Virus record (IMG/VR): IMGVR_UViG_3300009031_000221
Span: 288,001 to 352,000 of that record
DNA length: 64,000 bases
Origin: a virus
Taxonomy: Duplodnaviria > Caudoviricetes
Strand: one strand, 5' to 3'
The position numbers and the translations under genes are program-made. This document shows, piece after piece, positions 26 to 46,202 of the stretch (the stretch's first letter is position 1; each line of letters begins with the position of its first letter). The notes beneath the pieces were generated by a model. That model had not been told where the DNA came from, made no database searches, and saw only the letters and a program-made list of their open reading frames with translations.

Positions 26-427
26 ATGCCTAAGACCCGTGTTGCGATTGTGGGATCCCGAAATTTCAACAACCCCGCATTAATCACGGCCTTTGTCAAC
101 AGGCTTGCCGTCAAGCTCGATGCACAGAATCTGGTTGTGGTATCGGGCGGGGCAAAGGGTGTAGACTCCTATGCGGAAGCGGCGGCTCGATCCCTTGGCA
201 TCGAAGTAGAAAGCATCAAGCCTGACTGGGCAACCTACGGGAAGCGAGCCGGGTTTCTACGGAACACCACCATTGTAGAACATGCTGATCGTATTGTGGC
301 TTTTCATGACGGAATTAGTCGGGGCACTATGGACACTGTTTGGAAAGCCTTCGATTCGGGGAAACCCGTAGTGGTTTTGAATGATGAAGGTCACATAGTC
401 CCTCAAGATAAGTGGCCCCCTCGATAG
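26..427 (+). CDS. SLOG-superfamily (DUF2493/YspA-like) nucleotide-binding protein
   Basis: VAIVGSR, VVSGGAKGVD, AGFLRN and SRGT motifs typical of the SLOG Rossmann fold. Confidence 0.8.
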   Translation: MPKTRVAIVGSRNFNNPALITAFVNRLAVKLDAQNLVVVSGGAKGVDSYAEAAARSLGIEVESIKPDWATYGKRAGFLRNTTIVEHADRIVAFHDGISRGTMDTVWKAFDSGKPVVVLNDEGHIVPQDKWPPR

Positions 428-483
428 ATTTGACATATTAATCAATATCGTTCCTCGCGTGGGGGTATAGCCATGGAGGTTTC

Positions 484-9924: not shown

Positions 9925-10617
9925 ATGAAGGCATATTGGTTCAGCAGTAATGGGGAAGCGAAGTATGGCACCGTGAAGGACTACCTTATAGGCCAAACCT
10001 ACAAGGTAGAAGGGGAAATCAAGCCTTGTTCCCACGGGCTTCATGCCTCCGTATATCCCTTCGATGCCTTGGGATATGCAGGACGTGGGCGTACATTGGA
10101 TATCGTGGAGCTTGGCGGAACCGTTGTCTCGGGGAACCCAGACAAACATGCCGCAAGTGAACGTACACATGTTCAACGTATTGATGCTACTGATATGCTC
10201 CAGGAGTTCGCCCGGTGGTGTGCATTGAGTGTGGCTTACCAATGGCCCGAAATGCCTGCAATCATCCGGCAATACCTTGAAACCGGAGATCGGGAGCTTC
10301 GTAATGAAGCTGCCACTTGTCACAATACCATTATGGATTCATGTGATTACGGCACGCAATCGTCATTGCGGGCTTCTGATGCCACCTACTACGCCTTCTA
10401 TGATATCGGTCTGGCGGCTCTTGGGGCGGAATATGCAGCCCAATCTGCCTTTGACGGGGAGGTTGAGTTCTACAGGAATGCACACGACGTAGATGATCCC
10501 GATTATGACTCCAATTTCCGGGACAAGATCCGGCAAAAGCAAAGGGACAAGTTTCAGGAACTCGCGGACAAGTACTTCGCACAGGCATTGACATATGCAA
10601 ACCCCGATCAAGTGTAA
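9925..10617 (+). CDS. MKAYWFS-family paralog (DUF7666-like N-domain plus helical C-domain)
   Basis: C..GLHAS..P.DAL.Y, VELGG, EFARWCAL, YLETGD; paralogs at 21347, 22018, 44204, 45301. Confidence 0.75.
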   Translation: MKAYWFSSNGEAKYGTVKDYLIGQTYKVEGEIKPCSHGLHASVYPFDALGYAGRGRTLDIVELGGTVVSGNPDKHAASERTHVQRIDATDMLQEFARWCALSVAYQWPEMPAIIRQYLETGDRELRNEAATCHNTIMDSCDYGTQSSLRASDATYYAFYDIGLAALGAEYAAQSAFDGEVEFYRNAHDVDDPDYDSNFRDKIRQKQRDKFQELADKYFAQALTYANPDQV

Positions 10618-17989: not shown

Positions 17990-18916
17990 CTAGGACATGA
18001 AGGGGCTGAGTGTCCAGTTGCCGATAGTCTGGCGTAGGAACACTAGGGCACGGGATACAGTGGCCTTGCTGATGCTGAGGGACTGAGCTATCTCACCCCT
18101 CTCATATCCCTCAATGACCATAGGTAGGATACGTAGGGCCGTGGCCTCGAGTGCTTGGTCCTTCTTTGTAGTACTCTGTTCCTTGATGTACGTAATGAAA
18201 TCCCGCATCAGGATAGGGTCATGTACCTGTACACTAGAACCACCACCATTGAACTGCGTCTTGCCACAGGCATCTGCTACGTCCATCGACACAGCCTGCC
18301 CATCCTCATAGCCAATGATCCCTATCTGCTCAACAGACCTCTGCCTTGATACCTTGCGATGGTAATTCGACAGGATGCATCCTGCTACCATGTGGACGTA
18401 GTGCCCAAAGCTAGACTTCGCAGGATCCCACGCACACGTGCCACTGTTGCGTACCAGGAGCCCCTTATAGACCTCCTGCAATACATCCTCAGGCTCATAC
18501 CCCATCGCATAGATACGCCTGCCATACCCCGCAAATAACAACTTCGCTACCTCATGCCCTCTTCTCTGCAAATCTATCCCCTGACTCGGACTCTTGGCCC
18601 TAGGGGTATTTGGGGCTACCGTATTTGGGGCTACCGTAATTGATGTAGGCGATAGAGGCCCTGTAGCAAACATATCCAATATGGGAAACCCAGTAGTTAA
18701 TTGATTTTCGTATTTCCCCTGCCGGAAATACCTGTCCCATGTCCAATGCCTAGCCTCAGGATGTCCTGTCAATCCAATGAGTAACTGCCGTTTAGTGGGG
18801 AATACTTTTCCCTGAGCCTTGTATTTCCCATCAGGCAATAGGGCAATGGGAATGGCACCATCCTCATATCTGCTATAAATGGTAGATACCAAGCCAGTAT
18901 CAGCAACGGTTAACAT
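17990..18916 (-). CDS. Phage-encoded sigma-70/ECF-like RNA polymerase sigma factor with N-terminal extension
   Basis: Region 2-like EDVLQEV...WDPAKSSFGHYV...L.NYHRK and region 4 HTH GYERGEIAQSLSISKATVSR. Confidence 0.75.
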   Translation of the reverse strand: MLTVADTGLVSTIYSRYEDGAIPIALLPDGKYKAQGKVFPTKRQLLIGLTGHPEARHWTWDRYFRQGKYENQLTTGFPILDMFATGPLSPTSITVAPNTVAPNTPRAKSPSQGIDLQRRGHEVAKLLFAGYGRRIYAMGYEPEDVLQEVYKGLLVRNSGTCAWDPAKSSFGHYVHMVAGCILSNYHRKVSRQRSVEQIGIIGYEDGQAVSMDVADACGKTQFNGGGSSVQVHDPILMRDFITYIKEQSTTKKDQALEATALRILPMVIEGYERGEIAQSLSISKATVSRALVFLRQTIGNWTLSPFMS

Positions 18917-19195: not shown

Positions 19196-19669
19196 ATGGT
19201 GTCTAATACCCAAACTGGAGGCGAAACGAGGATGGCGGCATATACGGATAGAGTGACGGTGATACGGGAGTTCAATACTCTGGGAGATTTGATGTGGCAG
19301 TTTCGCACGTGTGCCTGTGCGAAGCATCTCCTGGGCTACAATTCGAAGAAGTCGTGGTATTGCGGTACTTGCAAGATAGTTTTGGACCCGCCGGCGACGT
19401 GGTGGCCTGGGTTTATCTGGGACCATGTAGAGGGATGGTTTGGGGGAGACGTGGGGACGTGTTGTAAACGTGGTCATCCTTACGCAGAGCATACGTTGGC
19501 AGAGATCGCGGCGACGTATGACCCTCCTAGGGATCCTGACGAGTTGTTTAAGGCCTTGTTGGGATCTGGGGGTCACAAGGATTTGTTTCGGGTGATGACC
19601 GGGCTTTATCCTGTGGAGTTTGACGAGGACGGCAACGTAGAAGTACTTGAGGAGAAGGGCGATGAGTAA
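19196..19669 (+). CDS. Hypothetical protein with Cys/His motifs
   Basis: C.CAKH, CGTC, CKRGH. Confidence 0.6.
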   Translation: MVSNTQTGGETRMAAYTDRVTVIREFNTLGDLMWQFRTCACAKHLLGYNSKKSWYCGTCKIVLDPPATWWPGFIWDHVEGWFGGDVGTCCKRGHPYAEHTLAEIAATYDPPRDPDELFKALLGSGGHKDLFRVMTGLYPVEFDEDGNVEVLEEKGDE

Positions 19670-20240
19670 TTGGTGGTTGACTTGGTATTTGACGTCTGAT
19701 TTCCTACCGAAGGCGGATAGGGTAGTCTTGGGGTGGTATCCGGATTGTGATTGGAGGCCTGGGGTTGTCTATGCGGTGTGCAGGGTCGAGTTTGACGGGC
19801 GTTCGGATGAGTGGCAGTCCGTGAATTTGAACATCAACATGCGGGACATAAAGAATCCGACTGGGGCTCCTTTGTATTGGCAGGAGTTGCCTACGGGGCC
19901 TGGGGGAGAGGATCCGTATGCGTCATGGGACCAGCAAACGGCTCATTATGAGATGCGGGTAAGCAAGCAGAAGTACGAGAGTGACCTTGTAGCGGCGATT
20001 ATGGGTAGCGATGGGGTAGAGAAGCGGGATTTCCGTATACAGCAAGTATGCCCAATGGAGTATCAGGGCATCGATACGGTGTGTTTGTCGTTTCACGATT
20101 ACACGGATCTACGGAAGTATCGTCGGGATTGTTTGCATGATGTAAATGACAATGAGGGGGATCGGGGCAAGTTGTTTGAAACGTCTGTATTGGTATCAGG
20201 GCAGGTACCATCAGGGACGATGTGGTGCGTCTTGAAGTGA
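19662..20240 (+). CDS. Hypothetical protein, paralog of 20253
   Basis: VLGWYP, PLYW..LP.GP.GED.YA, LVAAI, GVEKR.F, CLS..DY shared. Confidence 0.7.
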   Translation: MSNWWLTWYLTSDFLPKADRVVLGWYPDCDWRPGVVYAVCRVEFDGRSDEWQSVNLNINMRDIKNPTGAPLYWQELPTGPGGEDPYASWDQQTAHYEMRVSKQKYESDLVAAIMGSDGVEKRDFRIQQVCPMEYQGIDTVCLSFHDYTDLRKYRRDCLHDVNDNEGDRGKLFETSVLVSGQVPSGTMWCVLK

Positions 20241-20252
20241 AGGAGAAGGGCG

Positions 20253-21011
20253 ATGAGTAACCTTGACAACAATAGTGACAAGTGGATTTCGGTATTGGAG
20301 ACGTTGCCTATAGACTGGCGATTTGTGTTGGGTTGGTATCCATCGGAGGATCCGAACGGGATCAACACGGTGTTTCGTTCTGAGGGGCGTTGGTGGGGAA
20401 TCAACCTGTGCAATTCGAGGTTTGGCAATGGTGATTGTGCTGCTCCTTTGTATTGGCGATATTTGCCGTCTGGGCCTAATGGGGAGGATGTCTATGCGCC
20501 GCACCCTGCGATAGCGGAGAGGGCAACGGCCTGGATCAAGGCGGAGGCGCTTGTGGCAGCGATTGTGAAGGCTGAGGGCGACGGAGTCGGGGTAGAGAAG
20601 CGAGAGTTTGGTAGTGTCCTGTCTCCTGATACCGATTGGAAGGAGATTGAAACGATATGTTTGTCCTTACCTGATTACTTGCATATTCGGCGTAACCATT
20701 TCGTGTCATTGACGGGTGTAAATGACACGAAGAGTGAACGTGGGGAGTTGTTTGGTGCGAATGACGGGGCATCCGGTACGCCTGGACAGATCCCGTGCCC
20801 AATCAGATGCCATTTGACGGCCTTCATCTACCGTCAGTCCCTGGGGCATGGCCAGTTCGATCATGTCCATGATGATCAGGACGTTCCCATCGTACATTTG
20901 CAGGTTTTGGATCCTCTGATCAACCACGAGGTCGAAGATCGGGCCATAGAATGTCTGCATGACCTGAATGCGAGGATCGTAATCCCGGCTGAATACCAGA
21001 TTGGCAACTGA
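20253..21011 (+). CDS. Hypothetical protein, paralog of 19662, with a run-on tail antisense to the next gene
   Basis: Similarity ends at RGELF (about 20755); remainder overlaps 20706-21317. Confidence 0.6.
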   Translation: MSNLDNNSDKWISVLETLPIDWRFVLGWYPSEDPNGINTVFRSEGRWWGINLCNSRFGNGDCAAPLYWRYLPSGPNGEDVYAPHPAIAERATAWIKAEALVAAIVKAEGDGVGVEKREFGSVLSPDTDWKEIETICLSLPDYLHIRRNHFVSLTGVNDTKSERGELFGANDGASGTPGQIPCPIRCHLTAFIYRQSLGHGQFDHVHDDQDVPIVHLQVLDPLINHEVEDRAIECLHDLNARIVIPAEYQIGN

Positions 21012-21346: not shown

Positions 21347-22021
21347 TTACGCAATTGGCGGGGCAATTAGGTCTACCTGATTGAACGCCGCCTCGATCAT
21401 TTCGTTGAACTTGGCACGCTGAATTGATTTTGCCTCATCATAGCGAGCTTCAATGCCAGTGTTGGTACGAAAGCCTCGTTCAGCAAATGCCTCTCGGGCA
21501 GCGCGGGCGGCGCTACGACATTCACGAACAACACTGCTAGGGGTATATCCCGTTGAAGCATGCACGGCAGCAAGGCTGGCTTGATAACCTGATTCAGTAC
21601 GGGTATTCAGCATGGCTTCGTATGCTATCTCACGTGATTCGGCACGAATGGTTTCATCCCCTGTTTCCAAGTAACGCTTGACAAGCTCAGGGCAATCCCA
21701 ATCGGAAACAACCTGAAGGACACACCAACGGGCATATTCACGGAGGGTTGAAGTTGCATCAATCCGTTTTAGGTGCGTCCGTTTACTTGCGGCAACCTTA
21801 TCCCCATGATGTTCTACGATGGTTCCGCCTAGTTCTACTAGGTCAAGCGTTGGGCTACCTGCGGCTGCATAATGCAGTGCGTCGTACGGGTCTACTGAGG
21901 CATGCAGGCCATTGTGGCAAGCAGTGATTTCGCCTTCCTGAATGTAGGGCTCAGGGCGAACCTCATAGATGATAGTGCCGTGCTGTGCAAGCCCTTTGTT
22001 ACTGAACCAGTAGGCTTTCAT
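21347..22021 (-). CDS. MKAYWFS-family paralog
   Basis: CHNGLHAS.DP.DAL, EYARWC.L, YLETGD. Confidence 0.75.
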   Translation of the reverse strand: MKAYWFSNKGLAQHGTIIYEVRPEPYIQEGEITACHNGLHASVDPYDALHYAAAGSPTLDLVELGGTIVEHHGDKVAASKRTHLKRIDATSTLREYARWCVLQVVSDWDCPELVKRYLETGDETIRAESREIAYEAMLNTRTESGYQASLAAVHASTGYTPSSVVRECRSAARAAREAFAERGFRTNTGIEARYDEAKSIQRAKFNEMIEAAFNQVDLIAPPIA

Positions 22022-22653
22022 GGAGTTTCCTTGGCGAATGCTGCATCGATCATTTCGTTGAACTTGACACGGAGAGGAATGATGGCGATTTCATCCGCGA
22101 TTGTATGTGAAGTTGTAGCGTCGACGACAGCGTATGCGGCTTCTTCCGCATCCCCTGCGACAACGTTAGGGTGACATGCCATGCAGGCAGCCCTATTCGC
22201 ACGATGAACAACCGTACGATCACCCTTTACCATAAGCACCCTATTAGCATCATAGACGGCCTTGTATGCCTTCTTCTGAAGGGTAGGATCCCCCGTTTCC
22301 AGGTATTGCTTGACAACTTCCGGACATTCCCAAAGGTGAATGACCCGAAGGGCACACCAACGAGTAAACTCACGGATAATCGGAAGGGCATCGATACGCT
22401 TGATGTGCGTACGATGGCTTGCCACGTACTTGTGATTCAATCCTATACCGTGTTCCTTGATCTGGCCATCAAGCTCCACGATATCGACCATGTTCCCATT
22501 ATTGGCGAACAACAATGCTTGGAAAGGATCCTCACCGGCATGGAGCCCGTGTATACAAGGGACAACAGGCTCATCCTCTACAAAGGGCTCAGGGCGAACT
22601 GTGTAGGTGTTTCCGTGGGATCTTCCACCCTTGCTAAACCAATAGGCTTTCAT
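22018..22653 (-). CDS. MKAYWFS-family paralog
   Basis: CIHGLHAG.DP..AL, EFTRWCAL, YLETGD. Confidence 0.75.
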   Translation of the reverse strand: MKAYWFSKGGRSHGNTYTVRPEPFVEDEPVVPCIHGLHAGEDPFQALLFANNGNMVDIVELDGQIKEHGIGLNHKYVASHRTHIKRIDALPIIREFTRWCALRVIHLWECPEVVKQYLETGDPTLQKKAYKAVYDANRVLMVKGDRTVVHRANRAACMACHPNVVAGDAEEAAYAVVDATTSHTIADEIAIIPLRVKFNEMIDAAFAKETP

Positions 22654-24564: not shown

Positions 24565-24941
24565 AGCGGGTCTTCCTCAATGTCATGCTGTGTCCCAAGG
24601 CAAAGGAATTCCAGTTCATCATGGATGTGATCCAGTTGGGCCTGCCGATACTGGGTCGCAGCGGCGATCAACATGATCTTCCTGGGACTCGAGTGATCGA
24701 ACAGCAATCCATAGTAGCCCAAAGCATCGGTAGACGCTTCCGCCAACTTCGTTGCAAGCTCGAGCACATCAGGCGTAGGAGGCCAGTTGAAGAAGTTCAT
24801 GACTGCCTCAGGCGTTTTCGTGACCGGATGCCCCGTACGACGCAGAAACTGCCCTGCATCCAACACACGGTTGCGGCCTTTGGATTCGTCGCTCTGCATG
24901 TAGGCGGAGATCAATTCAGATGTCAAGTAATCGTCAATCAT
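24561..24941 (-). CDS. Hypothetical protein
   Basis: Coupled. Confidence 0.6.
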   Translation of the reverse strand: MIDDYLTSELISAYMQSDESKGRNRVLDAGQFLRRTGHPVTKTPEAVMNFFNWPPTPDVLELATKLAEASTDALGYYGLLFDHSSPRKIMLIAAATQYRQAQLDHIHDELEFLCLGTQHDIEEDPL

Positions 24942-25602
24942 TTGTGTATCCTTTATAGTGCGGGAACAAGGCGGAACGCGCTTGAATCCCTAGATTCTGT
25001 CCTCTGCAATCATCAAGGGGTTTGGTCGCATGCTTCCAAGGATTCCCGATAATGTCCTGTTTTTCCATAGGGGAGTCGGAATAGTATGCTGCCATGCCCA
25101 GTTGAGTGAATAGCACACTCACAGGTCCCTCCTGGGTATCCGAAATAGCTACGGGGTGTACCTGAATAGGGATACAAACTTGATTGACTCGTGGGTCAAT
25201 CTCGCGGGCGGTTCCCACCAAGGCAGTGATGCAGTCGTTCAATGAAATCCGCAGTGATTCAATGGCATTATTGGCAATAACCTCCATTGAATCACTGGGG
25301 TTTGTGTTGTATGCCAGTTCAAATAGCGGGATAGTTACCCTCCTGCCTGTCCGGTTCTCTAGAATATCGTTCCCATCCTCCCCGAGGAAGAATACAGGTG
25401 TGTTCGGATCTTTGTCATAGATAGGGGCACATCCTGAAGGCAAATCATCGAAATGAACGTGAATGGACTCCCATAGGATACCCTTTGGAAGGATGTTTGC
25501 TTTAGATACCAGGGGAGTGGCAAGGGATGATCGGGTTTGGAAGCCGAGAATGGCAGCGATCGATACTCCCAATGTATTGTGGAGGAATGTTCGACGATTC
25601 AT
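24934..25602 (-). CDS. Tat-signal protein resembling an internally deleted major capsid protein
   Basis: MNRRTFL; LPSGCAPIYDKDP...GEDGNDIL....RRVTIPLFELAYN matches my recollection of a large-phage capsid family. Confidence 0.55.
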   Translation of the reverse strand: MNRRTFLHNTLGVSIAAILGFQTRSSLATPLVSKANILPKGILWESIHVHFDDLPSGCAPIYDKDPNTPVFFLGEDGNDILENRTGRRVTIPLFELAYNTNPSDSMEVIANNAIESLRISLNDCITALVGTAREIDPRVNQVCIPIQVHPVAISDTQEGPVSVLFTQLGMAAYYSDSPMEKQDIIGNPWKHATKPLDDCRGQNLGIQARSALFPHYKGYTND

Positions 25603-27189: not shown

Positions 27190-28068
27190 TTGGCTGGCGA
27201 AATCAAAGGAACCCAGATTAGCAATGAATCCATTGCTAAAACACACATGACTGTTGGGTTGCAGGGTGAACTTGATGCCAAGGCATTGGATTCGGCTGTC
27301 CTTAAGAAGGACGGATCCGTTGTTCTGACTGGGCCGTTGGCGGGAATCGCGGGTGTAGGGCCTACAGACCTCGTCACTAAATCCCAGTTGGATAGTGTTG
27401 CCGGCGGATCCCTAATCCGCAATCAAGTGCTAGATTCCCTGGCTGCTCAACCGGGACACGTTGAAGGCGCTCGATACCTTGCCACTGCTACAGCAGGCGA
27501 TTGGGTCATCAATCACCTCTATACGTCTCTTTTGGGCGTGTGGGTGGATGATGGCGCACCGGTTGTTGGTTGGCTGGTCTATGACATCGCGGCGGGGGAT
27601 TGGAAATATTTCGATGGTGTTAATTGGATACCGAATTTCCAAGGGTTTCAAGTAGTTCATGCAGGGAACGGTCTAACAGAAGACGGTGCCAAAAACTTCA
27701 ACGTGAATGTAGACGGCACTTCCATTCAGATCACCGGCGGCATCCTGGAAATTGTACCCAGTACCACAGCGCCCTTTGAGGCTATTATTGAATCCGTTCT
27801 AAGCCCTCACACGGCAATTGAATCTATGGTTCTTGTCAATCCTCCGGTTGCTATTGCTTTCACTGTCAACCTGCCGGCGGGGGCAACACATGCTACGAAG
27901 CGTGTAACCGTCAAAGATAAGAAAGGGATGTGCTCGGATATAACTACCCAAATCACCATCAATGCTTTTGCCGGGGAAACCATTGACGGGGATGCAAGCA
28001 TACAGATTGACAACAATAAAGCGGCTGTGTCGATGGTGTTTAGTGGCACCGAATGGAGTGTGATATGA
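27190..28068 (+). CDS. DUF2793-like tail-associated virion protein
   Basis: GARYL....G.W......GVW....P..GWLVY......YFDG.NW; GGAGG RBS with TTG start. Confidence 0.65.
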   Translation: MAGEIKGTQISNESIAKTHMTVGLQGELDAKALDSAVLKKDGSVVLTGPLAGIAGVGPTDLVTKSQLDSVAGGSLIRNQVLDSLAAQPGHVEGARYLATATAGDWVINHLYTSLLGVWVDDGAPVVGWLVYDIAAGDWKYFDGVNWIPNFQGFQVVHAGNGLTEDGAKNFNVNVDGTSIQITGGILEIVPSTTAPFEAIIESVLSPHTAIESMVLVNPPVAIAFTVNLPAGATHATKRVTVKDKKGMCSDITTQITINAFAGETIDGDASIQIDNNKAAVSMVFSGTEWSVI

Positions 28069-29255
28069 GTTACCCAGGTTCTAACGTTCGTGTGGCTCAA
28101 TATGATGGTTCGATGTTTGGGGGTACTCGTGCCCACCAAGATTTAGCTGTATTTGAACGATTGCATGACTATCCGGGCGTTGCAACTGCATATGACACGG
28201 AATCCTACGGATTTGATACGGGTGGTGTCGTGGGTACGGCAACACATGTACCTAACACAGGATCCATTCGTCTGGCTTTGTCTGATGCTACGGTATCTAA
28301 GAAAGCTCGTTTACGGTCACACGATATCATCCGGTATCAACCGGGATGCATGCCTATTGTTCAAATGACGGGGGTGTCATCATCCAATGCAGGCATGATT
28401 TTGAAGTGTATTCGTCGGACATCCACGTCGGGTGTTCCTGTGGATAACGTTGAAGCGACCATTGCAGGCATTGATGCTGCAACCGAGAATAGGTATGAAC
28501 TTCGGTATGCCTACCTTGGTGTTCAAGGTGTTCAGTATTACGTCAATGGAAATCTGGTCCAAAACTCCATTTTGGCGGGAACATTGACGGTTCCTTTCAT
28601 GAAGACCCCACATTTGCCCATATCAGTTGAGATCCAAACTTTGGTCGATGGTTCACAAGTAATTCGACTTGGGGTTTTCGATGACTCTGATGGGTTGTTC
28701 TTTGAATGGTCTCGTGCCGTTGGGTCTGCCGCTGCATTTTCCTATGACTACAAATGTTCGTCAGGTCGATTGATTGGGGGGTCGGTATATCCGTTCCATA
28801 CTTATGGGATGACCAGGGCTACAACAGGTACGGGGGCTGCAATGATCCCATTGTTCAGTATTCGCCCAAAGGCGACTTTGAACGGTATCCCCTCCCGTGT
28901 TCAAATATTCCCGACTCAGGTTTCTTTCTTTAGTGAGTCTCAACCCGGTGCTTTGGCAATCATTATGAACACAACCTTAACAGGGCCTACATGGGTATCC
29001 GCTTCCCCTAGCCCTGCCGTGGAAGTGGATGTTGCCGCTACTCTTGTGGCCGGGGGGACTACTTTGTGGCAAGTAGGGCAAGGTGCCAATCAACAATACA
29101 CCTATGATCTATCCAAGCTATTCACCTTGATTGGTATCAAACTTCGTCACCAAGCCTTCACGGGGACTGAGGATATCCTAACTTTCGCCGTTCAACGGGA
29201 AGGGGCTGTCAATTTTGATCCCCGTGTGACAGTAACCTGGGACGAATTGCGTTAG
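28065..29255 (+). CDS. Putative virion structural protein (beta-rich)
   Basis: RYQPG, LGVFDDSDGLFFE, PLFSIRPK; ATGA-coupled to the DUF2793-like gene. Confidence 0.6.
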   Translation: MSYPGSNVRVAQYDGSMFGGTRAHQDLAVFERLHDYPGVATAYDTESYGFDTGGVVGTATHVPNTGSIRLALSDATVSKKARLRSHDIIRYQPGCMPIVQMTGVSSSNAGMILKCIRRTSTSGVPVDNVEATIAGIDAATENRYELRYAYLGVQGVQYYVNGNLVQNSILAGTLTVPFMKTPHLPISVEIQTLVDGSQVIRLGVFDDSDGLFFEWSRAVGSAAAFSYDYKCSSGRLIGGSVYPFHTYGMTRATTGTGAAMIPLFSIRPKATLNGIPSRVQIFPTQVSFFSESQPGALAIIMNTTLTGPTWVSASPSPAVEVDVAATLVAGGTTLWQVGQGANQQYTYDLSKLFTLIGIKLRHQAFTGTEDILTFAVQREGAVNFDPRVTVTWDELR

Positions 29256-30782: not shown

Positions 30783-31814
30783 ATGGTTCTAGGCATGGAG
30801 GTGCCTATGTCTGATCTACCCAATATCATCGAATTCGCAGCTAGCGTTCTCGATATTCATCTAACACCCGTTCAATGTGTCATATTGAAAGCACATTACG
30901 GTATCCCGTTGGATACAGAGACCCTGTTTGAGATATGTACGCCCCAACTGGCGACGGGGCAATTTATCGTAAACACCTGGACGGAAGCAAAGTACTTGGA
31001 ATACTTGTACTATGAAGGCAGGTCGAATATCCGAGAGGTAGACCACGAACGGCGGGAACTCGTCTTGGCGAGCGGCAGACGGAGTGGCAAGGGGATGCTT
31101 GGGTGCATCATTGCTGCCTATGAGGCATACAAGTTGGCATGGAAGGGCGATCCGCAGGCCTACTACGGTTTGCCCCCAAGCACCGTCCTACAGATTCTGT
31201 TGGTGGGTACCGACAAGGATCAGGCGGGGCTCATTCTTCATGAGGTCAATGGATTCCTCCGTAGCACTCCCCTGAATGACCATCGTGCGAACAATACGCA
31301 GACCTACATGCGATTCCAGACACGGAAGGACATTGATACCTACGGGTCATGGGTGGATGACTTGACGGCAAAGGCCTCTATCAAGGTGACTGCAACGTCT
31401 AGCAATCACCAAGGGCTTCGTGGAGCCGGCAATATTTGTGTCATTTTAGATGAGTTGGCACATTACAAGGAAGCCGAGAACGTCTACCATGCCATCATGC
31501 CTTCGATCATGCTCTTCTCCAAGAAGGCGGAGGACAAGCGCACACCCGTTGGCTCATGTGAAGGGCGTTTGGTAAGCCTGTCAACCCCGAATGGGAAGCG
31601 TGGCATGTTCCACAAGTTGTTCATGGCGGGATTCAATGAAAAGCGTAGCGACAACATGCTGTGCTTGCAAATCCCGACTTGGGAAGCGAATCCGTCTATT
31701 CCGATGGAATTCTACACGGAAATGTACGAACGTCAGCCCAAGTACTTTGGCGTGGAATACGGGGCACACTTCGTAGACCTGTGTTGCCCTCAGTGCGGGT
31801 GCGAATTGGCCTAG
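30783..31814 (+). CDS. Terminase large subunit ATPase-domain-only paralog (no nuclease domain)
   Basis: LTPVQ..ILK, GRRSGK, DKDQA, GLRG.....ILDELAH, LSTPNGKRG.F, PTWE.NP, EYGA.F.D, then stop; likely start ATG 30807. Confidence 0.8.
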   Translation: MVLGMEVPMSDLPNIIEFAASVLDIHLTPVQCVILKAHYGIPLDTETLFEICTPQLATGQFIVNTWTEAKYLEYLYYEGRSNIREVDHERRELVLASGRRSGKGMLGCIIAAYEAYKLAWKGDPQAYYGLPPSTVLQILLVGTDKDQAGLILHEVNGFLRSTPLNDHRANNTQTYMRFQTRKDIDTYGSWVDDLTAKASIKVTATSSNHQGLRGAGNICVILDELAHYKEAENVYHAIMPSIMLFSKKAEDKRTPVGSCEGRLVSLSTPNGKRGMFHKLFMAGFNEKRSDNMLCLQIPTWEANPSIPMEFYTEMYERQPKYFGVEYGAHFVDLCCPQCGCELA

Positions 31815-32230
31815 GCCTTATTCGGATTATTCCGAGTGCACCATGCCAGGTATTCATCAAAATTGATTCCCGTAATTTGTTGGATAAGCACGCTAACGTC
31901 TCCCAGATGAGCGTCACCAAGAATCATCATGATCTTGTAGATTTGATCCTTGGTTTCTAGCTGCGGTTGGATTGCGGCGCACCATGCTTTCTTGATCGTA
32001 TCCGGCAAGTCATCGAACTCGGGCATGGGCAAACCCTGATAGTTCTTGTTGTCCGTTACTGCCGCATAACGTGCGTATGCCTCCCGTGCGAGTTTCAATT
32101 CCAACTCCGCATGCAGGCAATCCTTCAATGAAGGGAATGGGAAAGGCCTATCCGATTGGGCATGCTCGTCTCGTTCTATGATTTCTTTGAGAGTCTCAAA
32201 GAAACCTTTATCGATGTCTTTCTGTGTCAT
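31811..32230 (-). CDS. Hypothetical protein
   Basis: Coupled run. Confidence 0.6.
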   Translation of the reverse strand: MTQKDIDKGFFETLKEIIERDEHAQSDRPFPFPSLKDCLHAELELKLAREAYARYAAVTDNKNYQGLPMPEFDDLPDTIKKAWCAAIQPQLETKDQIYKIMMILGDAHLGDVSVLIQQITGINFDEYLAWCTRNNPNKA

Positions 32231-32565: not shown

Positions 32566-32756
32566 TGCGGTGTCCTTATAGTGGGATCCTTGATGTTGTG
32601 ACGTGCTGCGAATTCCTTTACGTCAGCTTCCAGCTCTGCCATGGCTTGGGCTTCTGAATATCCTTCTTCCCACCCGCTTTCGCATTCCGTATAGATGATG
32701 CCATTACGTTCGGATTCATAGTAGAATTTGAGCAATTCTTCGGTATCCTTGATCAT
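32562..32756 (-). CDS. Hypothetical protein
   Basis: ATGA coupling. Confidence 0.55.
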   Translation of the reverse strand: MIKDTEELLKFYYESERNGIIYTECESGWEEGYSEAQAMAELEADVKEFAARHNIKDPTIRTPQ

Positions 32757-33052
32757 TTGTGTACCCCATAGTGCTTGGGCTTCTCGACTCCGCTTTCCTT
32801 GGCGTACTCCCCGCGTTGTGCAAATACGTTAGCATTCCAACGTCCGCCATAGGGCTTGTATGTTTCCATATTGTTCATCCACTTTACTGCGACCTCGTAT
32901 CGTTCCTTCCAGGTAAACGGCATGGGTTCGTGGTACAAGTCCCATCGGACTTTACGCCACATGCCAAAGAACACGTAGTAGGGGACGGCACGCTCCACGA
33001 TAATGGTTTCGCCGATGATCCTTGTGCGATAGGCTTGTTCGATTAGTGTCAT
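32753..33052 (-). CDS. Hypothetical protein
   Basis: ATGA coupling. Confidence 0.6.
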   Translation of the reverse strand: MTLIEQAYRTRIIGETIIVERAVPYYVFFGMWRKVRWDLYHEPMPFTWKERYEVAVKWMNNMETYKPYGGRWNANVFAQRGEYAKESGVEKPKHYGVHK

Positions 33053-34664: not shown

Positions 34665-34993
34665 GACCTTCTCTTTAGGGATTCAAACGCCGAGTTGAAG
34701 GCTTCTTCGATAGCTGCAGGCAATTCCTTGATGGAGATACCCGTATGATCGGATACTTCTACCGTGATGGGGAACATGAGATCCCCCCAGGACTTATTCA
34801 TTATAACGGGTTGAACGGTGAATAGGCATCCAGGGAATTGCTTCGCCGCTTCCATCAATTGTGCTGCCCCAAGGGTGGTCACTCGAGGAAGAAGATCAAG
34901 CCTATTAGGAGGGATGCAAGGCTCTGCCGCAAGGTATACCTTGTCATCCTTCATGAATGCGCTGTAGGGAAGGTCACCCATGGCTATTACCAA
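34661..34993 (-). CDS. Hypothetical protein
   Basis: Coupled run. Confidence 0.55.
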   Translation of the reverse strand: MVIAMGDLPYSAFMKDDKVYLAAEPCIPPNRLDLLPRVTTLGAAQLMEAAKQFPGCLFTVQPVIMNKSWGDLMFPITVEVSDHTGISIKELPAAIEEAFNSAFESLKRRS

Positions 34994-35631
34994 TCACTGC
35001 TATCGGTTGCGTTCAATACTTCCTTGGTTACCAAGTCCGTCACGTATACGGCGGTTCCTACACGGCAATCCAAGAACTTGAATTTGAACCGGGAACCTGA
35101 CATGGGCGGGGAAGGATGTGCCGCCAAGGCCTTGGTTGTCCATTCAATGATCCGTTGCATCTCCACACCGCCGACGTGGCAAATGTCAGGGTGACAATCG
35201 GGCAGAGTGCCATAACGATCACGATCAGGTGCCTCAAGGGGTTCCAAACATTCCTCGAGCTTGACTGATAGCTCAATCCCGAACTCTATGTCGGACATGA
35301 GAACCCATACATCCTGTGGCATGTCATGATCCGTTACGATCATTGCCCCGTGCATATAAGCCCTGATGCCTTGATCTATCAGCACCTTTTGGTTTTCAGG
35401 GTCAAAATTATCACGCCAGAACTTCCGCACTTCCGGATAGTTGAACGGGTGCATGACGATATATGCAACTTTGCCATCGCGTCTTTCAATCTCATCCCAT
35501 GCAGGATGAATCTTTTCAGGCCCTAGATGGCGTGAGTCGGCTTTGAAGTCCGGTGCCTGAAGGGCCTTCGCTCGAGCCTTGGTTTTCACAGTATCCATGA
35601 AACTAGAAAATGTGACAGGTTCCGTTACCAT
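34987..35631 (-). CDS. Hypothetical protein
   Basis: 214-aa ORF in coupled run. Confidence 0.65.
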   Translation of the reverse strand: MVTEPVTFSSFMDTVKTKARAKALQAPDFKADSRHLGPEKIHPAWDEIERRDGKVAYIVMHPFNYPEVRKFWRDNFDPENQKVLIDQGIRAYMHGAMIVTDHDMPQDVWVLMSDIEFGIELSVKLEECLEPLEAPDRDRYGTLPDCHPDICHVGGVEMQRIIEWTTKALAAHPSPPMSGSRFKFKFLDCRVGTAVYVTDLVTKEVLNATDSSDW

Positions 35632-35840
35632 TCGTCCTCCTCGTCATCCTCTAGCAGGTCTATTTCACCGGTTCTCAGGTCTATGTACCCTAAATAGGCG
35701 TGTGTTGTAGGGTCTACAAGCATGATGTTGCCGACAGCATTGCGTTCAAGGCCTATGACCGGGGACAATTGCTTCAGGGTGCTACTGAGTTGCTCAACAG
35801 TTATCATACCTTCTTCCTTGCCAAGGGGTGCGGATGGCAA
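35625..35840 (-). CDS. Hypothetical protein with acidic tail
   Basis: Likely start MITVE. Confidence 0.55.
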   Translation of the reverse strand: MPSAPLGKEEGMITVEQLSSTLKQLSPVIGLERNAVGNIMLVDPTTHAYLGYIDLRTGEIDLLEDDEEDEW

Positions 35841-36289
35841 CCAACGTGGCTTACGCAGTTCTCGATGTTCATCAGGAAGTCAAGGGCCTCGGCCTGACCG
35901 ATACCCTTTTCTTCGGCAGTCTTTGCGACCATTTCCCACATTTCCGCTTCGGGAATCATCTCGTATTCGGATGGTTCGAATGCCTTGAACATCAACCCTG
36001 CATTCGCAGCGTCTTCACATGTTGGATTCCCTGACCCAAGGATATGCCTTGGTAAAGGGTTATCCTTCTGCCATTGTCGGTTGAATTTCAAGATCTCAGC
36101 CTTGTCAACAAGGTATCCGTAGGTTTTCCACTGCAACCGCTCTTCCCGGGCACGACGGACACCATTGTAGAGCTGGGTTCTTCCTTCAGGTGTCTTGAGG
36201 GCATCCCGAATCATCTTCATGCGGACTTCCGCATTGATTGTATTTGTCATACGGTAGCCTTCTTCCTTACTAGCGGGTGTGGGTGGCAC
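35804..36289 (-). CDS. Hypothetical protein with capsid-N-helix-like start, paralog of 36247
   Basis: MIRDALKTPEGR.QL; shared C-terminus EP..YE..PE.E.WE.VA...GCHPHPL.RKK. Confidence 0.65.
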   Translation of the reverse strand: MPPTPASKEEGYRMTNTINAEVRMKMIRDALKTPEGRTQLYNGVRRAREERLQWKTYGYLVDKAEILKFNRQWQKDNPLPRHILGSGNPTCEDAANAGLMFKAFEPSEYEMIPEAEMWEMVAKTAEEKGIGQAEALDFLMNIENCVSHVGCHPHPLARKKV

Positions 36290-36750
36290 CCTGGGGCGTT
36301 GTTATTCCATGGAAACTTCATGATGGCACGAACGGCAAGGACTTCGGTTAGGGCGTGTTCTTGTGCGTGCTGGGCTACCTTTTCCCAGAACTCGGACTCA
36401 GGCACTGCCTCGTAGTCCTCAGGTTCATACGCTACCCACCATACGCCGGCGGCAAACAACTCATCTCGCGGCACGTCATGAAAGTGTATGGGAAGAGGGC
36501 AACTCAGCCCTTCATCTGTGTGCAGGAATTGTTCAGGGTGTTCCTTGACGTACTTGAAGTACGCTTTGTCGTCAAAGCCCCAATGGTGCAAATACATGCG
36601 GCTGTCTATGGTATTGACAAAGGATTGGTAGATACGGTGCCGTCCCGTTGGGTAATTAAGGCATCGTGTCAAGGCCTTCAGGTAATCCTGTTCGATCTTG
36701 CTGTCCTTGAGGGGAGGAGTTTCCGTGAGGTCATGGATAGCGCCCATCAC
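36247..36750 (-). CDS. Hypothetical protein, paralog of 35804
   Basis: L..P.GR..IY and shared C-terminus. Confidence 0.65.
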   Translation of the reverse strand: MMGAIHDLTETPPLKDSKIEQDYLKALTRCLNYPTGRHRIYQSFVNTIDSRMYLHHWGFDDKAYFKYVKEHPEQFLHTDEGLSCPLPIHFHDVPRDELFAAGVWWVAYEPEDYEAVPESEFWEKVAQHAQEHALTEVLAVRAIMKFPWNNNAPGCHPHPLVRKKATV

Positions 36751-45078: not shown

Positions 45079-45320
45079 CCACGGTAGACACGCCGCAGGG
45101 ACTGCTGGACAAGGACAAGATCTTTGACCGCCTCCCGTCCTAGGAGGCGCTTGGAATTCGGGGCACGTACCCCGATTGCGGACAGGATGTTGTGCGCTTT
45201 CGACAGGTACATGGCAGCATGCTCCCGGTTCCGCAGATTGATCTGCTCCTGGGCACTGGCGAATGCTGCCTTGGCATCCTTGGCACAGATCTTGATGATC
45301 TCATCCGATACGTTCAGCAT
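44985..45320 (-). CDS. Hypothetical helical protein
   Basis: Coupled run. Confidence 0.55.
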   Translation of the reverse strand: MLNVSDEIIKICAKDAKAAFASAQEQINLRNREHAAMYLSKAHNILSAIGVRAPNSKRLLGREAVKDLVLVQQSLRRVYRGCIGLSGLGHIDALTKAMQQCANKKWWKREF

Positions 45321-45984
45321 TTTGCACCTCGAAAGCTTTGTCTACAAGCTCTTGGAATTTTACCCTTTGTGCGGCACGGGTATTTTGGAAGGCCAAATGT
45401 GCGTCATTGACGGAGAATGGGTGATCTCGGTACACCGCATCCGCCGCATATGTCGCAGCGCTTACGACTTGCCGCCCCACACTCAAATCGGTTGCGGTGA
45501 AAATGGCCTGGTATGCCGATTTAGCTGCCAGGGAAGGCACCCAATTACCGGCGTCCTCCAATGCCTGCCAAATAATACCTGTAAGGGCCTCCGCAGCATT
45601 GGCAAGCGAATCGTCACCCGTTTCCAGGTACCGTTTGACGATATCCGGGCATTCCCAAAGGTGAATCACCTGAAGGGCGCACCAACGGGCGAACTCCTTC
45701 AACAAGGGCGGAACTGGAATGCGATCCAAGTGCCTACGTTGGCTGGCGGCGTACTTGTTGACCGGCGTTCCATGTCCCACGATGGTCCCATCAAGCTCAA
45801 CGATATCCAGAGTCGACGGATAGAATGAGTATACCAAGGCATCGAAGGGATCAACGGAGGCATGAAGGCCATTCTCGCAAGGAATGATGATTCCGCCCTC
45901 GGTATAGGAATTACCTACCATGTAGATAATGTGCGATCTCCCCTGCATCGGACGACCATCCTTGCTGAACCAGTATGCCTTCAT
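45301..45984 (-). CDS. MKAYWFS-family paralog
   Basis: CENGLHASVDPFDAL, EFARWCAL, YLETGD; start set at MKAYWFS. Confidence 0.75.
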   Translation of the reverse strand: MKAYWFSKDGRPMQGRSHIIYMVGNSYTEGGIIIPCENGLHASVDPFDALVYSFYPSTLDIVELDGTIVGHGTPVNKYAASQRRHLDRIPVPPLLKEFARWCALQVIHLWECPDIVKRYLETGDDSLANAAEALTGIIWQALEDAGNWVPSLAAKSAYQAIFTATDLSVGRQVVSAATYAADAVYRDHPFSVNDAHLAFQNTRAAQRVKFQELVDKAFEVQNAERIG

Positions 45985-46202
45985 GCTTGTGCCTCGATGT
46001 TCTTGACCGTTTGATGGAACTCCGCATCCGTAAACCACAAGGACTTCAATGCAAGAATGCCCCGGGCCTTGCAGCACGTCGGGCAATCGCAACACGTCCC
46101 GCCATGAACCTTCTTGGAGGGTACGCCCTTAGCGGCGATCCAGACCTCCCAGTCTTGGGGAGTCCAGTAGAGCGTGGATACAGTTGGAACGGGGAATACC
46201 AT
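45981..46202 (-). CDS. Small Cys-containing protein
   Basis: CCDCPTC; downstream of a promoter motif. Confidence 0.6.
   Translation of the reverse strand: MVFPVPTVSTLYWTPQDWEVWIAAKGVPSKKVHGGTCCDCPTCCKARGILALKSLWFTDAEFHQTVKNIEAQA

Follow-up and report, generated by a model that had tools for sequence, protein, structure and literature searches.

The large terminase subunit (TerL) is the motor that all tailed phages share, and bacterial pattern-recognition immunity has it as one of its main targets. T4 (vs.8) and Rak2-like jumbo phages carry copies of its ATPase domain that stand alone, and we know of no function shown for any of them. In the Rak2-like phages, as in Pectobacterium phage CBB (CBB_274) and its GAP32 homolog, a short 'terminase large subunit' gene lies directly upstream of terL; CBB_274 is 235 aa long, is 21% identical to residues 38-288 of the TerL CBB_275 (E 6e-9), and has lost the P-loop Lys and the Walker B Glu. 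The T4 protein vs.8 is a stand-alone TerL-ATPase paralog beside a normal TerL (PMC13601566). Isolated ATPase domains of five terminases each activate EcAvs2 more than 1000-fold, and the isolated TerL ATPase domain suffices to activate Upx too (Evans et al., PMC13601566). A literature search on truncated or nuclease-lacking large terminases found no papers, and such paralogs go unmentioned in a comparative review of jumbo phages. Here we describe a gene of this kind, termed half-terminase, at positions 30783-31814 of a stretch of 64,000 nucleotides (the window, meaning the whole stretch analysed). The window corresponds to bases 288001-352000 of IMG/VR virus record IMGVR_UViG_3300009031_000221, a groundwater megaphage of 536,053 bp whose completeness is estimated as full by CheckV. 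Comparative evidence shows the gene to be a conserved, selection-maintained copy of the ATPase domain of a megaphage large terminase.

An ATPase domain without its nuclease

The features of the gene are listed below, with residues numbered in the frame of the 343-aa open reading frame (ORF).

30783-31814, plus strand: longest ORF of half-terminase, 343 aa, from the ORF list
30807-31814, plus strand: likely true coding sequence, 335 aa, from the position of the ribosome-binding site and public gene calls
30797-30809, plus strand: Shine-Dalgarno sequence GGAGG (30797-30801), 5-nt spacer and ATG at 30807, read directly from the sequence
31074-31094, plus strand: degenerate Walker A GRRSGKG, residues 98-104, in which Gly (GGG) at 104 replaces the Mg2+-coordinating Thr/Ser
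31416-31454, plus strand: LRGAG with R213, followed by Walker B CVILDE, residues 219-224 (D223/E224), retained according to a hidden Markov model (HMM) alignment
31671-31778, plus strand: IPTWEANP and the terminal EYGAHFVD (residues 325-332), the motif that closes the ATPase domain, from motif alignment
31779-31811, plus strand: Cys-rich tail LCCPQCGCELA, a single knuckle of CPxCG type, with a predicted local distance difference test (pLDDT) value below 50 in the model

Translation likely starts at 30807 and yields a product of 335 aa, because GGAGG lies 5 nt before that ATG; public gene calls place the start either there (P0001, 335 aa) or at the ATG at 30795 (P0028, 339 aa). The PHROG TerL families match the ATPase part alone (phrog_2, E 3e-12, profile positions 275-456 of 807), and the Pfam TerL_ATPase match (E 2e-4) falls below the family cut-off. 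The AlphaFold2 (AF2) model, based on a 20-sequence alignment, has a pLDDT of 90.6 and a predicted template modelling (pTM) score of 0.90, with the first 4 and last 10 residues poorly defined. Its best Protein Data Bank (PDB) matches by Foldseek are the TerL ATPase domains of P74-26, T4 gp17, HK97, Sf6 and D6E. In the HMM alignment, R213, D223 and E224 correspond to R139 and the Walker B residues of P74-26 TerL, R139 being the residue that differs between the wild-type (4zni) and R139A (4znj) structures; we take this position to be that of the trans-acting arginine finger. The P-loop Lys is retained although the Thr/Ser is lost, a change from which general P-loop biochemistry leads one to expect loss of ATPase activity. 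In the crystal chain of the P74-26 ATPase domain, the matching EYGAEF occupies residues 254-261 of 274, at the end of the aligned region, and half-terminase terminates 11 residues past this EYGAxF boundary. The product is a complete TerL ATPase domain without the RNase H-like nuclease or the basic C-terminal tail. The first-pass annotation, made from the letters alone, had described a complete TerL-like ATPase domain that ends after EYGAHFVD with a CCPQCGC tail, and the sequence, the PHROG matches and the AF2/PDB matches agree with this description. Its reading of Walker A as GRRSGKG in place of GK[T/S] is borne out by the GGG codon of residue 104.

A full-length TerL, which the first-pass annotation had proposed to look for elsewhere in the genome, lies at 151771-153732 of the record (G000), 167 kb from half-terminase. 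It has 653 aa, a Walker A reading GRRSGKT and a complete ATPase domain, and its gene is preceded by genes of 226 aa and 131 aa and followed by two small genes and then the portal gene. Half-terminase is 47% identical to residues 23-383 of this TerL and ends exactly at the start of the nuclease domain. The full-length gene is placed in the packaging module and half-terminase outside it, among accessory genes. Half-terminase thus has the TerL ATPase fold, Walker B and the arginine finger, and lacks the GK[T/S] of Walker A, the nuclease domain and the location in the packaging module. As a nuclease-less paralog it cannot itself be the packaging nuclease or motor, in keeping with the earlier description of a non-packaging protein.

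A genome-wide search with phrog_2 found three places: half-terminase, the full-length TerL and a PhoH-like ATPase. The last, a 334-aa protein at genome 455321-456325 (L003:1321-2325, minus strand), is a PhoH-like P-loop ATPase with a weak match and was rejected as a TerL. The missing nuclease half could in principle reflect a split terminase or an assembly error, both of which the first-pass annotation had named as ways in which its reading might fail. A tblastn search of the whole 536-kb genome with the nuclease half of the genome's own TerL matched full-length terL alone, and two Pfam nuclease-domain models gave nothing besides terL in the genome; the lone nuclease copy therefore sits in a gene that has its own complete ATPase domain, which rules out a split terminase. 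The exact half-terminase protein occurs on 11 contigs across several samples, and over the 7 kb that surround its gene the sequence matches a 208-kb Logan contig at 100% identity. Identical sequence in independent assemblies rules out an assembly error, and a gene in convergent orientation abuts the stop codon. Taken jointly, these two explanations have a negligible probability.

A third such possibility, that half-terminase is a decaying partial duplicate of terL, is likewise contradicted by its conservation. Of the 39 columns conserved to at least 85% in 63 full-length TerLs, half-terminase retains 36, and its three changes are conservative (Ile/Leu, Phe/Tyr and Ser/Thr). Judged by alignment, this retention is within the range of genuine TerLs and unlike a copy decaying at about 50% divergence. 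In the sister subgroup, which shares the Cys tail, two alleles are separated by 8 synonymous substitutions and a single non-synonymous one, giving a ratio of non-synonymous to synonymous rates (dN/dS) of 0.035 (binomial p = 4.6e-5 against neutrality). No variation was found within the half-terminase gene itself: its cluster members are start-site variants, the Logan contig is identical, and X5, the sole record that shares part of the stretch, covers a 405-bp piece outside the gene. A neutral relic would fit the loss of a key Walker A residue and the absence of the gene from 22 related genomes. However, the frame runs unbroken for 343 codons although it has diverged by about 50% from any TerL, a canonical ribosome-binding site precedes it, and homologs of about 35-45% identity share the end boundary and, for the most part, the Cys-rich tail, two of them (P0132 and P0158) also as lone genes on the opposite strand. 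The relic explanation is thus largely refuted and appears highly improbable. The check on conservation and purifying selection in relatives that had been proposed beforehand is accordingly answered by same-boundary homologs and by the substitution pattern of the sister subgroup.

Loss of the P-loop is a property of the short forms as a group. The P-loop is broken, with Lys or Thr/Ser lost, in 17 of 44 short forms as compared with 2 of 63 full-length TerLs (Fisher p = 2.6e-6), four further apparent losses among long forms having been set aside as intein-end alignment artefacts. The variants comprise GKG, GKN, GKD, GKK, GAT, GGT/S, GST, GRT and one rearranged loop, and since they are scattered over the tree, the loss arose many times. 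By comparison, all 80 of 80 related full-length TerLs read GK[T/S], or GKC where an intein follows. The frequency of P-loop loss in the short forms argues that ATP hydrolysis is dispensable for their role, whereas the rest of the domain is conserved. Among the full-length proteins, TerLs of 1000-1450 aa read GRRSGK-C (L077, L162-L176, L181, L193-L196, L207 and L208), which indicates a putative intein that immediately follows the lysine of Walker A; for P0024, an intein domain is among the precomputed Pfam matches.

A family of nuclease-less TerL-ATPase proteins

A word-indexed search recovered short homologs that end at the same point as half-terminase, among them P0013, which has GRRAGKG and an end reading ...CPHCGHKF. 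When 1.84 billion cluster representatives were searched exhaustively with a profile, 4,653 matched; of the best 150, about 60 have a length of 290-385 aa and terminate at the EFGAxF motif or a few residues past it. These short forms are not contig-end fragments, because such fragments would not all end at one motif, and true fragments (P0002, P0004, P0008 and P0014) can be recognised by their continuation into the start of the nuclease. In a FastTree phylogeny of the ATPase-domain alignment, a clade of 44 rows with support 99 holds nuclease-less forms alone, namely 43 short proteins and P0016, which has a different C-terminus. With 44 short and 26 full-length rows, IQ-TREE under the posterior mean site frequency (PMSF) C20 model split the two sets at 100/100 and grouped half-terminase with P0132/P0158 (97/77) and P0172 (91/92). 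The careful IQ-TREE search reached a tree 33 log-likelihood (lnL) units better than the quick search. In the quick search, an approximately unbiased (AU) test had put the constrained trees ahead of the free tree; this result was discarded as an artefact of an under-searched free tree, since the careful search reversed the sign.

Short forms from five other contigs match half-terminase better than they match the megaphage's own full-length TerL, as reciprocal best hits. A common origin of the short forms is supported by these hits together with the identical truncation point, the CPxCG tail and the shared genomic layout. In the tail, CCPQCGCELA aligns with CPHCG or CPLCG in P0013, P0132, P0158 and P0060; the Cys-tail subgroup comprises P0013, P0132, P0158, P0172 and P0037, and half-terminase has its Cys knuckle directly after the ATPase domain. 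The clade has at least 44 nuclease-less cluster representatives, and the contigs examined for its members are phage-like DNA, mostly of megaphage size. A pattern scan found no relatives in species-representative bacterial and archaeal genomes, and the matches in the GenBank phage collection (E <= 1e-5) are only TerL genes or unannotated ORFs, from other groups of phages. On these searches, the family is widespread yet sporadic.

The surroundings of the short forms fall into several patterns. In the Cys-tail subgroup, a lone plus-strand gene within a long minus-strand array of small genes, as in the window, recurs on L116, L209, L210 and two further ENA contigs, and P0027 has the same lone-gene layout. 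L115, a 357-kb scaffold, differs in that its short TerL opens a plus-strand operon after a strand switch. The phages concerned are relatives of the megaphage: homologs of the window genes 28053-29255 and 27190-28068 are present on L209 and L116 (59-63% identity), and homologs of window 17990-18916, 32753-33052 and 34987-35631 lie close to the short TerL of L115; BLAST found no neighbour homology between the window and L110 or L108. On L113, a 119-aa gene (100-459, plus strand) two genes upstream of the GKN-type P0026 has a precomputed Pfam match to Acb5 (PF26761).

In two IMG/VR relatives, G025 and G023, the short forms are found in the terminase operon itself. The packaging modules of these relatives are syntenic with that of the megaphage, and in the two the gene in the position of the small terminase (TerS) is 41% and 29%, TerL 53% and 39%, and the portal 52% and 39% identical to the corresponding proteins. 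G025 has two in-operon short forms, of 392 and 316 aa (P0046 and P0136), and G023 has one, of 328 aa (P0117). They are stop/start-coupled and lie between the homolog of the 226-aa gene that precedes terL (the TerS position) and a terL that bears an intein. Together with the megaphage described here, G023 and G025 are genomes that have a short form as well as a complete TerL.

Several further kinds of C-terminal tail and some unusual N-termini were observed in the short clade. Helix-rich tails of 35-45 aa that resemble a ribbon-helix-helix (RHH) fold by eye occur in P0026, P0120, P0129, P0162 and P0127, and a further tail type of about 45 aa with a conserved 'GILV..(G)W.VTTG' occurs in P0010, P0017, P0030 and P0034. 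The short-form representatives P0065, P0067 and P0094 have twin-arginine-like N-termini (RRDF.K, RRRTFF), which are unexpected for a terminase-derived cytoplasmic ATPase and could be wrong start calls.

The diversity of these add-ons (CPxCG knuckle, RHH-like helix-rich, 'GILV..TTG' and small beta-rich) would be compatible with an ATP- or DNA-binding module repurposed outside packaging, for example as a nucleic-acid-binding regulator that uses the Cys knuckle, and in several phages the gene has small accessory genes as neighbours and the structural modules are far away. The tail assignments were made by inspection alone, however, and both the linkage to terL operons in G023 and G025 and the strong conservation of TerL-specific motifs across the whole domain speak for a tie to the terminase. 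We consider such repurposing unlikely.

Proposed role and rival explanations

Since clade members sit inside the terminase operons of related phages, a packaging-linked role is indicated for the family. Our tentative preference is that half-terminase is a non-catalytic, TerL-derived accessory subunit associated with the terminase. In this role it would neither cut nor pump DNA, and the retained surfaces of its ATPase fold would bind full-length TerL or the terminase-DNA complex. Its arginine finger could still act in trans, and the Cys knuckle at its C-terminus is probably a Zn site that would serve dimerisation or a contact with protein or nucleic acid. The outcome would be a tuning or gating of packaging initiation or of motor assembly.

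A number of observations weigh against an accessory subunit of the terminase. Half-terminase itself is separated from the packaging operon by 167 kb and has accessory genes as neighbours. Among related huge phages, 22 records (10 with a completeness of at least 90%) have a single TerL-like gene each; as a second such gene is absent from them, packaging in this clade does not require the family. A placement of half-terminase among the full-length TerLs (delta lnL 18.5, p = 0.258) or, in a smaller set, as the sister of the genome's own TerL (p = 0.126) is not rejected by the AU test, so that the tree by itself does not prove a single origin of the short forms and is compatible with an independent one. 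The effect of the Thr-to-Gly change on ATPase activity would follow from what holds for P-loop proteins in general. The predicted complex of half-terminase with the genome's own TerL lends the subunit reading weak support and is no more than a weak pass: the interface score ipSAE has a median of 0.39 (0.32, 0.47 and 0.39) as compared with 0.00 for the best control, with contacts that agree to at least 90% and a partner pLDDT of at least 84. Among solved complexes 58 of 80 reach this ipSAE mark, as do 2 of 110 mismatched pairs; a score of 0.60 or less is wrong more often than right, and the predicted score may reflect likeness to, or memory of, solved TerL oligomers.

An interaction with TerL could also be hostile. 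Half-terminase may be a dominant-negative poison subunit that co-assembles into the TerL rings of co-infecting related phages and stalls their packaging, which would amount to superinfection exclusion. A dead P-loop combined with an intact ring-forming fold and arginine finger is the classic make-up of a poison subunit, and half-terminase shows this combination. Its opposite-strand place in the accessory array suggests expression uncoupled from the structural operon, so its timing may differ from that of the structural genes, and the sporadic distribution among related phages is also consistent with such a function. By contrast, the genome's own TerL is among the closest full-length relatives of half-terminase (47-52% identity), and self-poisoning would be expected first; moreover, many family members have an intact P-loop, some of them in the terminase operon. 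We therefore regard a poison subunit as rather unlikely.

Two further genes of the accessory region bear on a possible link to host defence. Two intact ORFs on the minus strand of the window, at 24934-25602 (222 aa) and 34987-35631 (214 aa), resemble the major capsid protein in part. Each has a segment of 48-62 aa with 40-50% identity to the genome's own major capsid protein (genome 137187-138062; phrog_2522 match, E 1.4e-48), and the two segments correspond to different parts of that protein. On the L115 megaphage scaffold, a homolog of the ORF at 34987-35631 lies about 8 kb from the short TerL.

Half-terminase could accordingly be an anti-defence decoy or sponge, maybe one of several truncated mimics of core proteins, that binds TerL sensors (Avs1-3 and Upx) non-productively and shields the real TerL. 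The fold is that gripped by Avs sensors, and the Foldseek matches of the model include the Avs3-bound PhiV-1 terminase (8dgc_E). The P-loop site, changed in 17 of the 44 family members, is what EcAvs2 reads, as this sensor touches the gamma-phosphate of terminase-bound ATP and the Mg2+ hydration shell via a bridging ATP (PMC13601566). The two capsid-fragment-like ORFs in the accessory region, with the homolog of one near the short TerL of L115, and the gene with the Acb5 match near P0026 would also fit a decoy. However, EcAvs2 and Upx are switched on by isolated ATPase domains of TerL, and EcAvs2 also by T4 vs.8, so that binding normally triggers the sensor and an extra copy of the ATPase domain is, if anything, a liability. 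Family members also sit inside terminase operons, and the neighbours searched match only virion-structural families or families of unknown function in Pfam and PHROGs, none of them anti-defence. Pfam and PHROG scans of the half-terminase protein likewise found no anti-defence family (PADLOC was not scanned). We judge a decoy distinctly unlikely, and the P-loop loss could be an escape from such detection rather than evidence for a titrating decoy. Decoy and dominant-negative inhibitor are the two functions that the first-pass annotation had put forward; its reading is thus supported in part, for the intact non-packaging paralog and not for these functions. In a related scenario, which we consider a long shot, a P-loop-dead TerL copy and a capsid-fragment gene within a few kb of each other, found in two divergent megaphages, would form a mimic module that blunts or misdirects sensors such as Avs and Upx, with the P-loop loss preventing their triggering.

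The remaining features of the window concern the setting of the gene. The window DNA is also present in groundwater metagenome runs and has a G+C content of about 51% throughout. Half-terminase is a sole plus-strand gene flanked on both sides by arrays of small minus-strand ORFs, nearly all without a family match in Pfam or PHROGs, and profile searches found no portal, TerS or nuclease match within the window. The initial description of an isolated plus-strand gene among accessory genes, with no portal or small terminase nearby, therefore stands. A scan for sigma-70-like promoters and terminators gave nothing beyond the shuffled expectation, and there were no RNA runs among the runs listed with this stretch. 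Apart from half-terminase, the window contains members of a multi-copy family with at least 6 paralogs of 210-280 aa and 40-50% mutual identity, dispersed over the genome, whose only match is a weak one to phrog_4433, and adjacent pairs of diverged paralogs without a family match.

31811-32230, minus strand: convergent 139-aa gene of unknown function, phrog_20502, whose stop overlaps the half-terminase stop within CTAG
21347-22021, minus strand: multi-copy family member
22018-22653, minus strand: multi-copy family member
9925-10617, plus strand: multi-copy family member
45301-46095, minus strand: multi-copy family member
Genome 416760-418309: multi-copy family member outside the window
19647-20240 and 20253-21011, plus strand: adjacent paralogs, 39% identical
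35804-36289 and 36247-36750, minus strand: adjacent paralogs, 29% identical

Comparison with known systems

Among the closest counterparts of half-terminase are the full-length TerLs of the megaphage clade (for example the genome's own TerL and that of the uncultured huge phage LR745208.1), whose ATPase domain is 47-53% identical to it. They share the fold, the N-terminal IIEFA..PVQ..ILK..YG, GRRxGK, the LRG arginine, Walker B, IPTWE and EYGAxF. The differences are that half-terminase has no nuclease or basic tail, carries Gly in Walker A and an extra Cys knuckle, and is located away from the portal gene and the gene in the TerS position. The in-operon forms of G025 (P0046 and P0136) and G023 (P0117) belong to the same 44-member clade and end at the same domain boundary, whereas they are translationally coupled before terL and have other tails; P0136 and P0117 read GKS, and P0046 has a rearranged P-loop.

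The described stand-alone copies differ more widely. T4 vs.8, unlike half-terminase, keeps Walker A and Walker B and activates EcAvs2. No T4-group phage was among the organisms tallied in the GenBank phage search with half-terminase (E <= 1e-5), which argues that vs.8 and half-terminase are independent derivations from different TerL lineages. CBB_274 is, like half-terminase, a nuclease-less TerL-ATPase paralog with a degenerate P-loop in a jumbo phage; by comparison, the Rak2-like short genes are of T4-type (Terminase_6N) origin, are always adjacent to terL, lack the Cys tail and show no detectable sequence relationship to the half-terminase family. The gp16 proteins of phi29 type are also packaging-type ATPases of the additional strand, conserved glutamate (ASCE) class without a nuclease, and the structure of a related motor (7jq6) is among the weaker fold matches of half-terminase. 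In that system, however, gp16 is the sole, catalytically active motor of its phage, whereas the megaphage has a complete TerL besides half-terminase, whose P-loop is degenerate.

If proteins of this family are non-catalytic subunits of the motor or terminase, the packaging machines of megaphages would be hetero-oligomeric; if they act on host sensors instead, they would represent a new counter-defence principle. Compared with the systems above, what is new here is a large, independent half-terminase family that derives from a megaphage TerL lineage and has its own C-terminal add-ons, that unites operon-linked and dispersed members, and that carries a statistical signature in which P-loop loss is tolerated in the half-copies and not in TerL.

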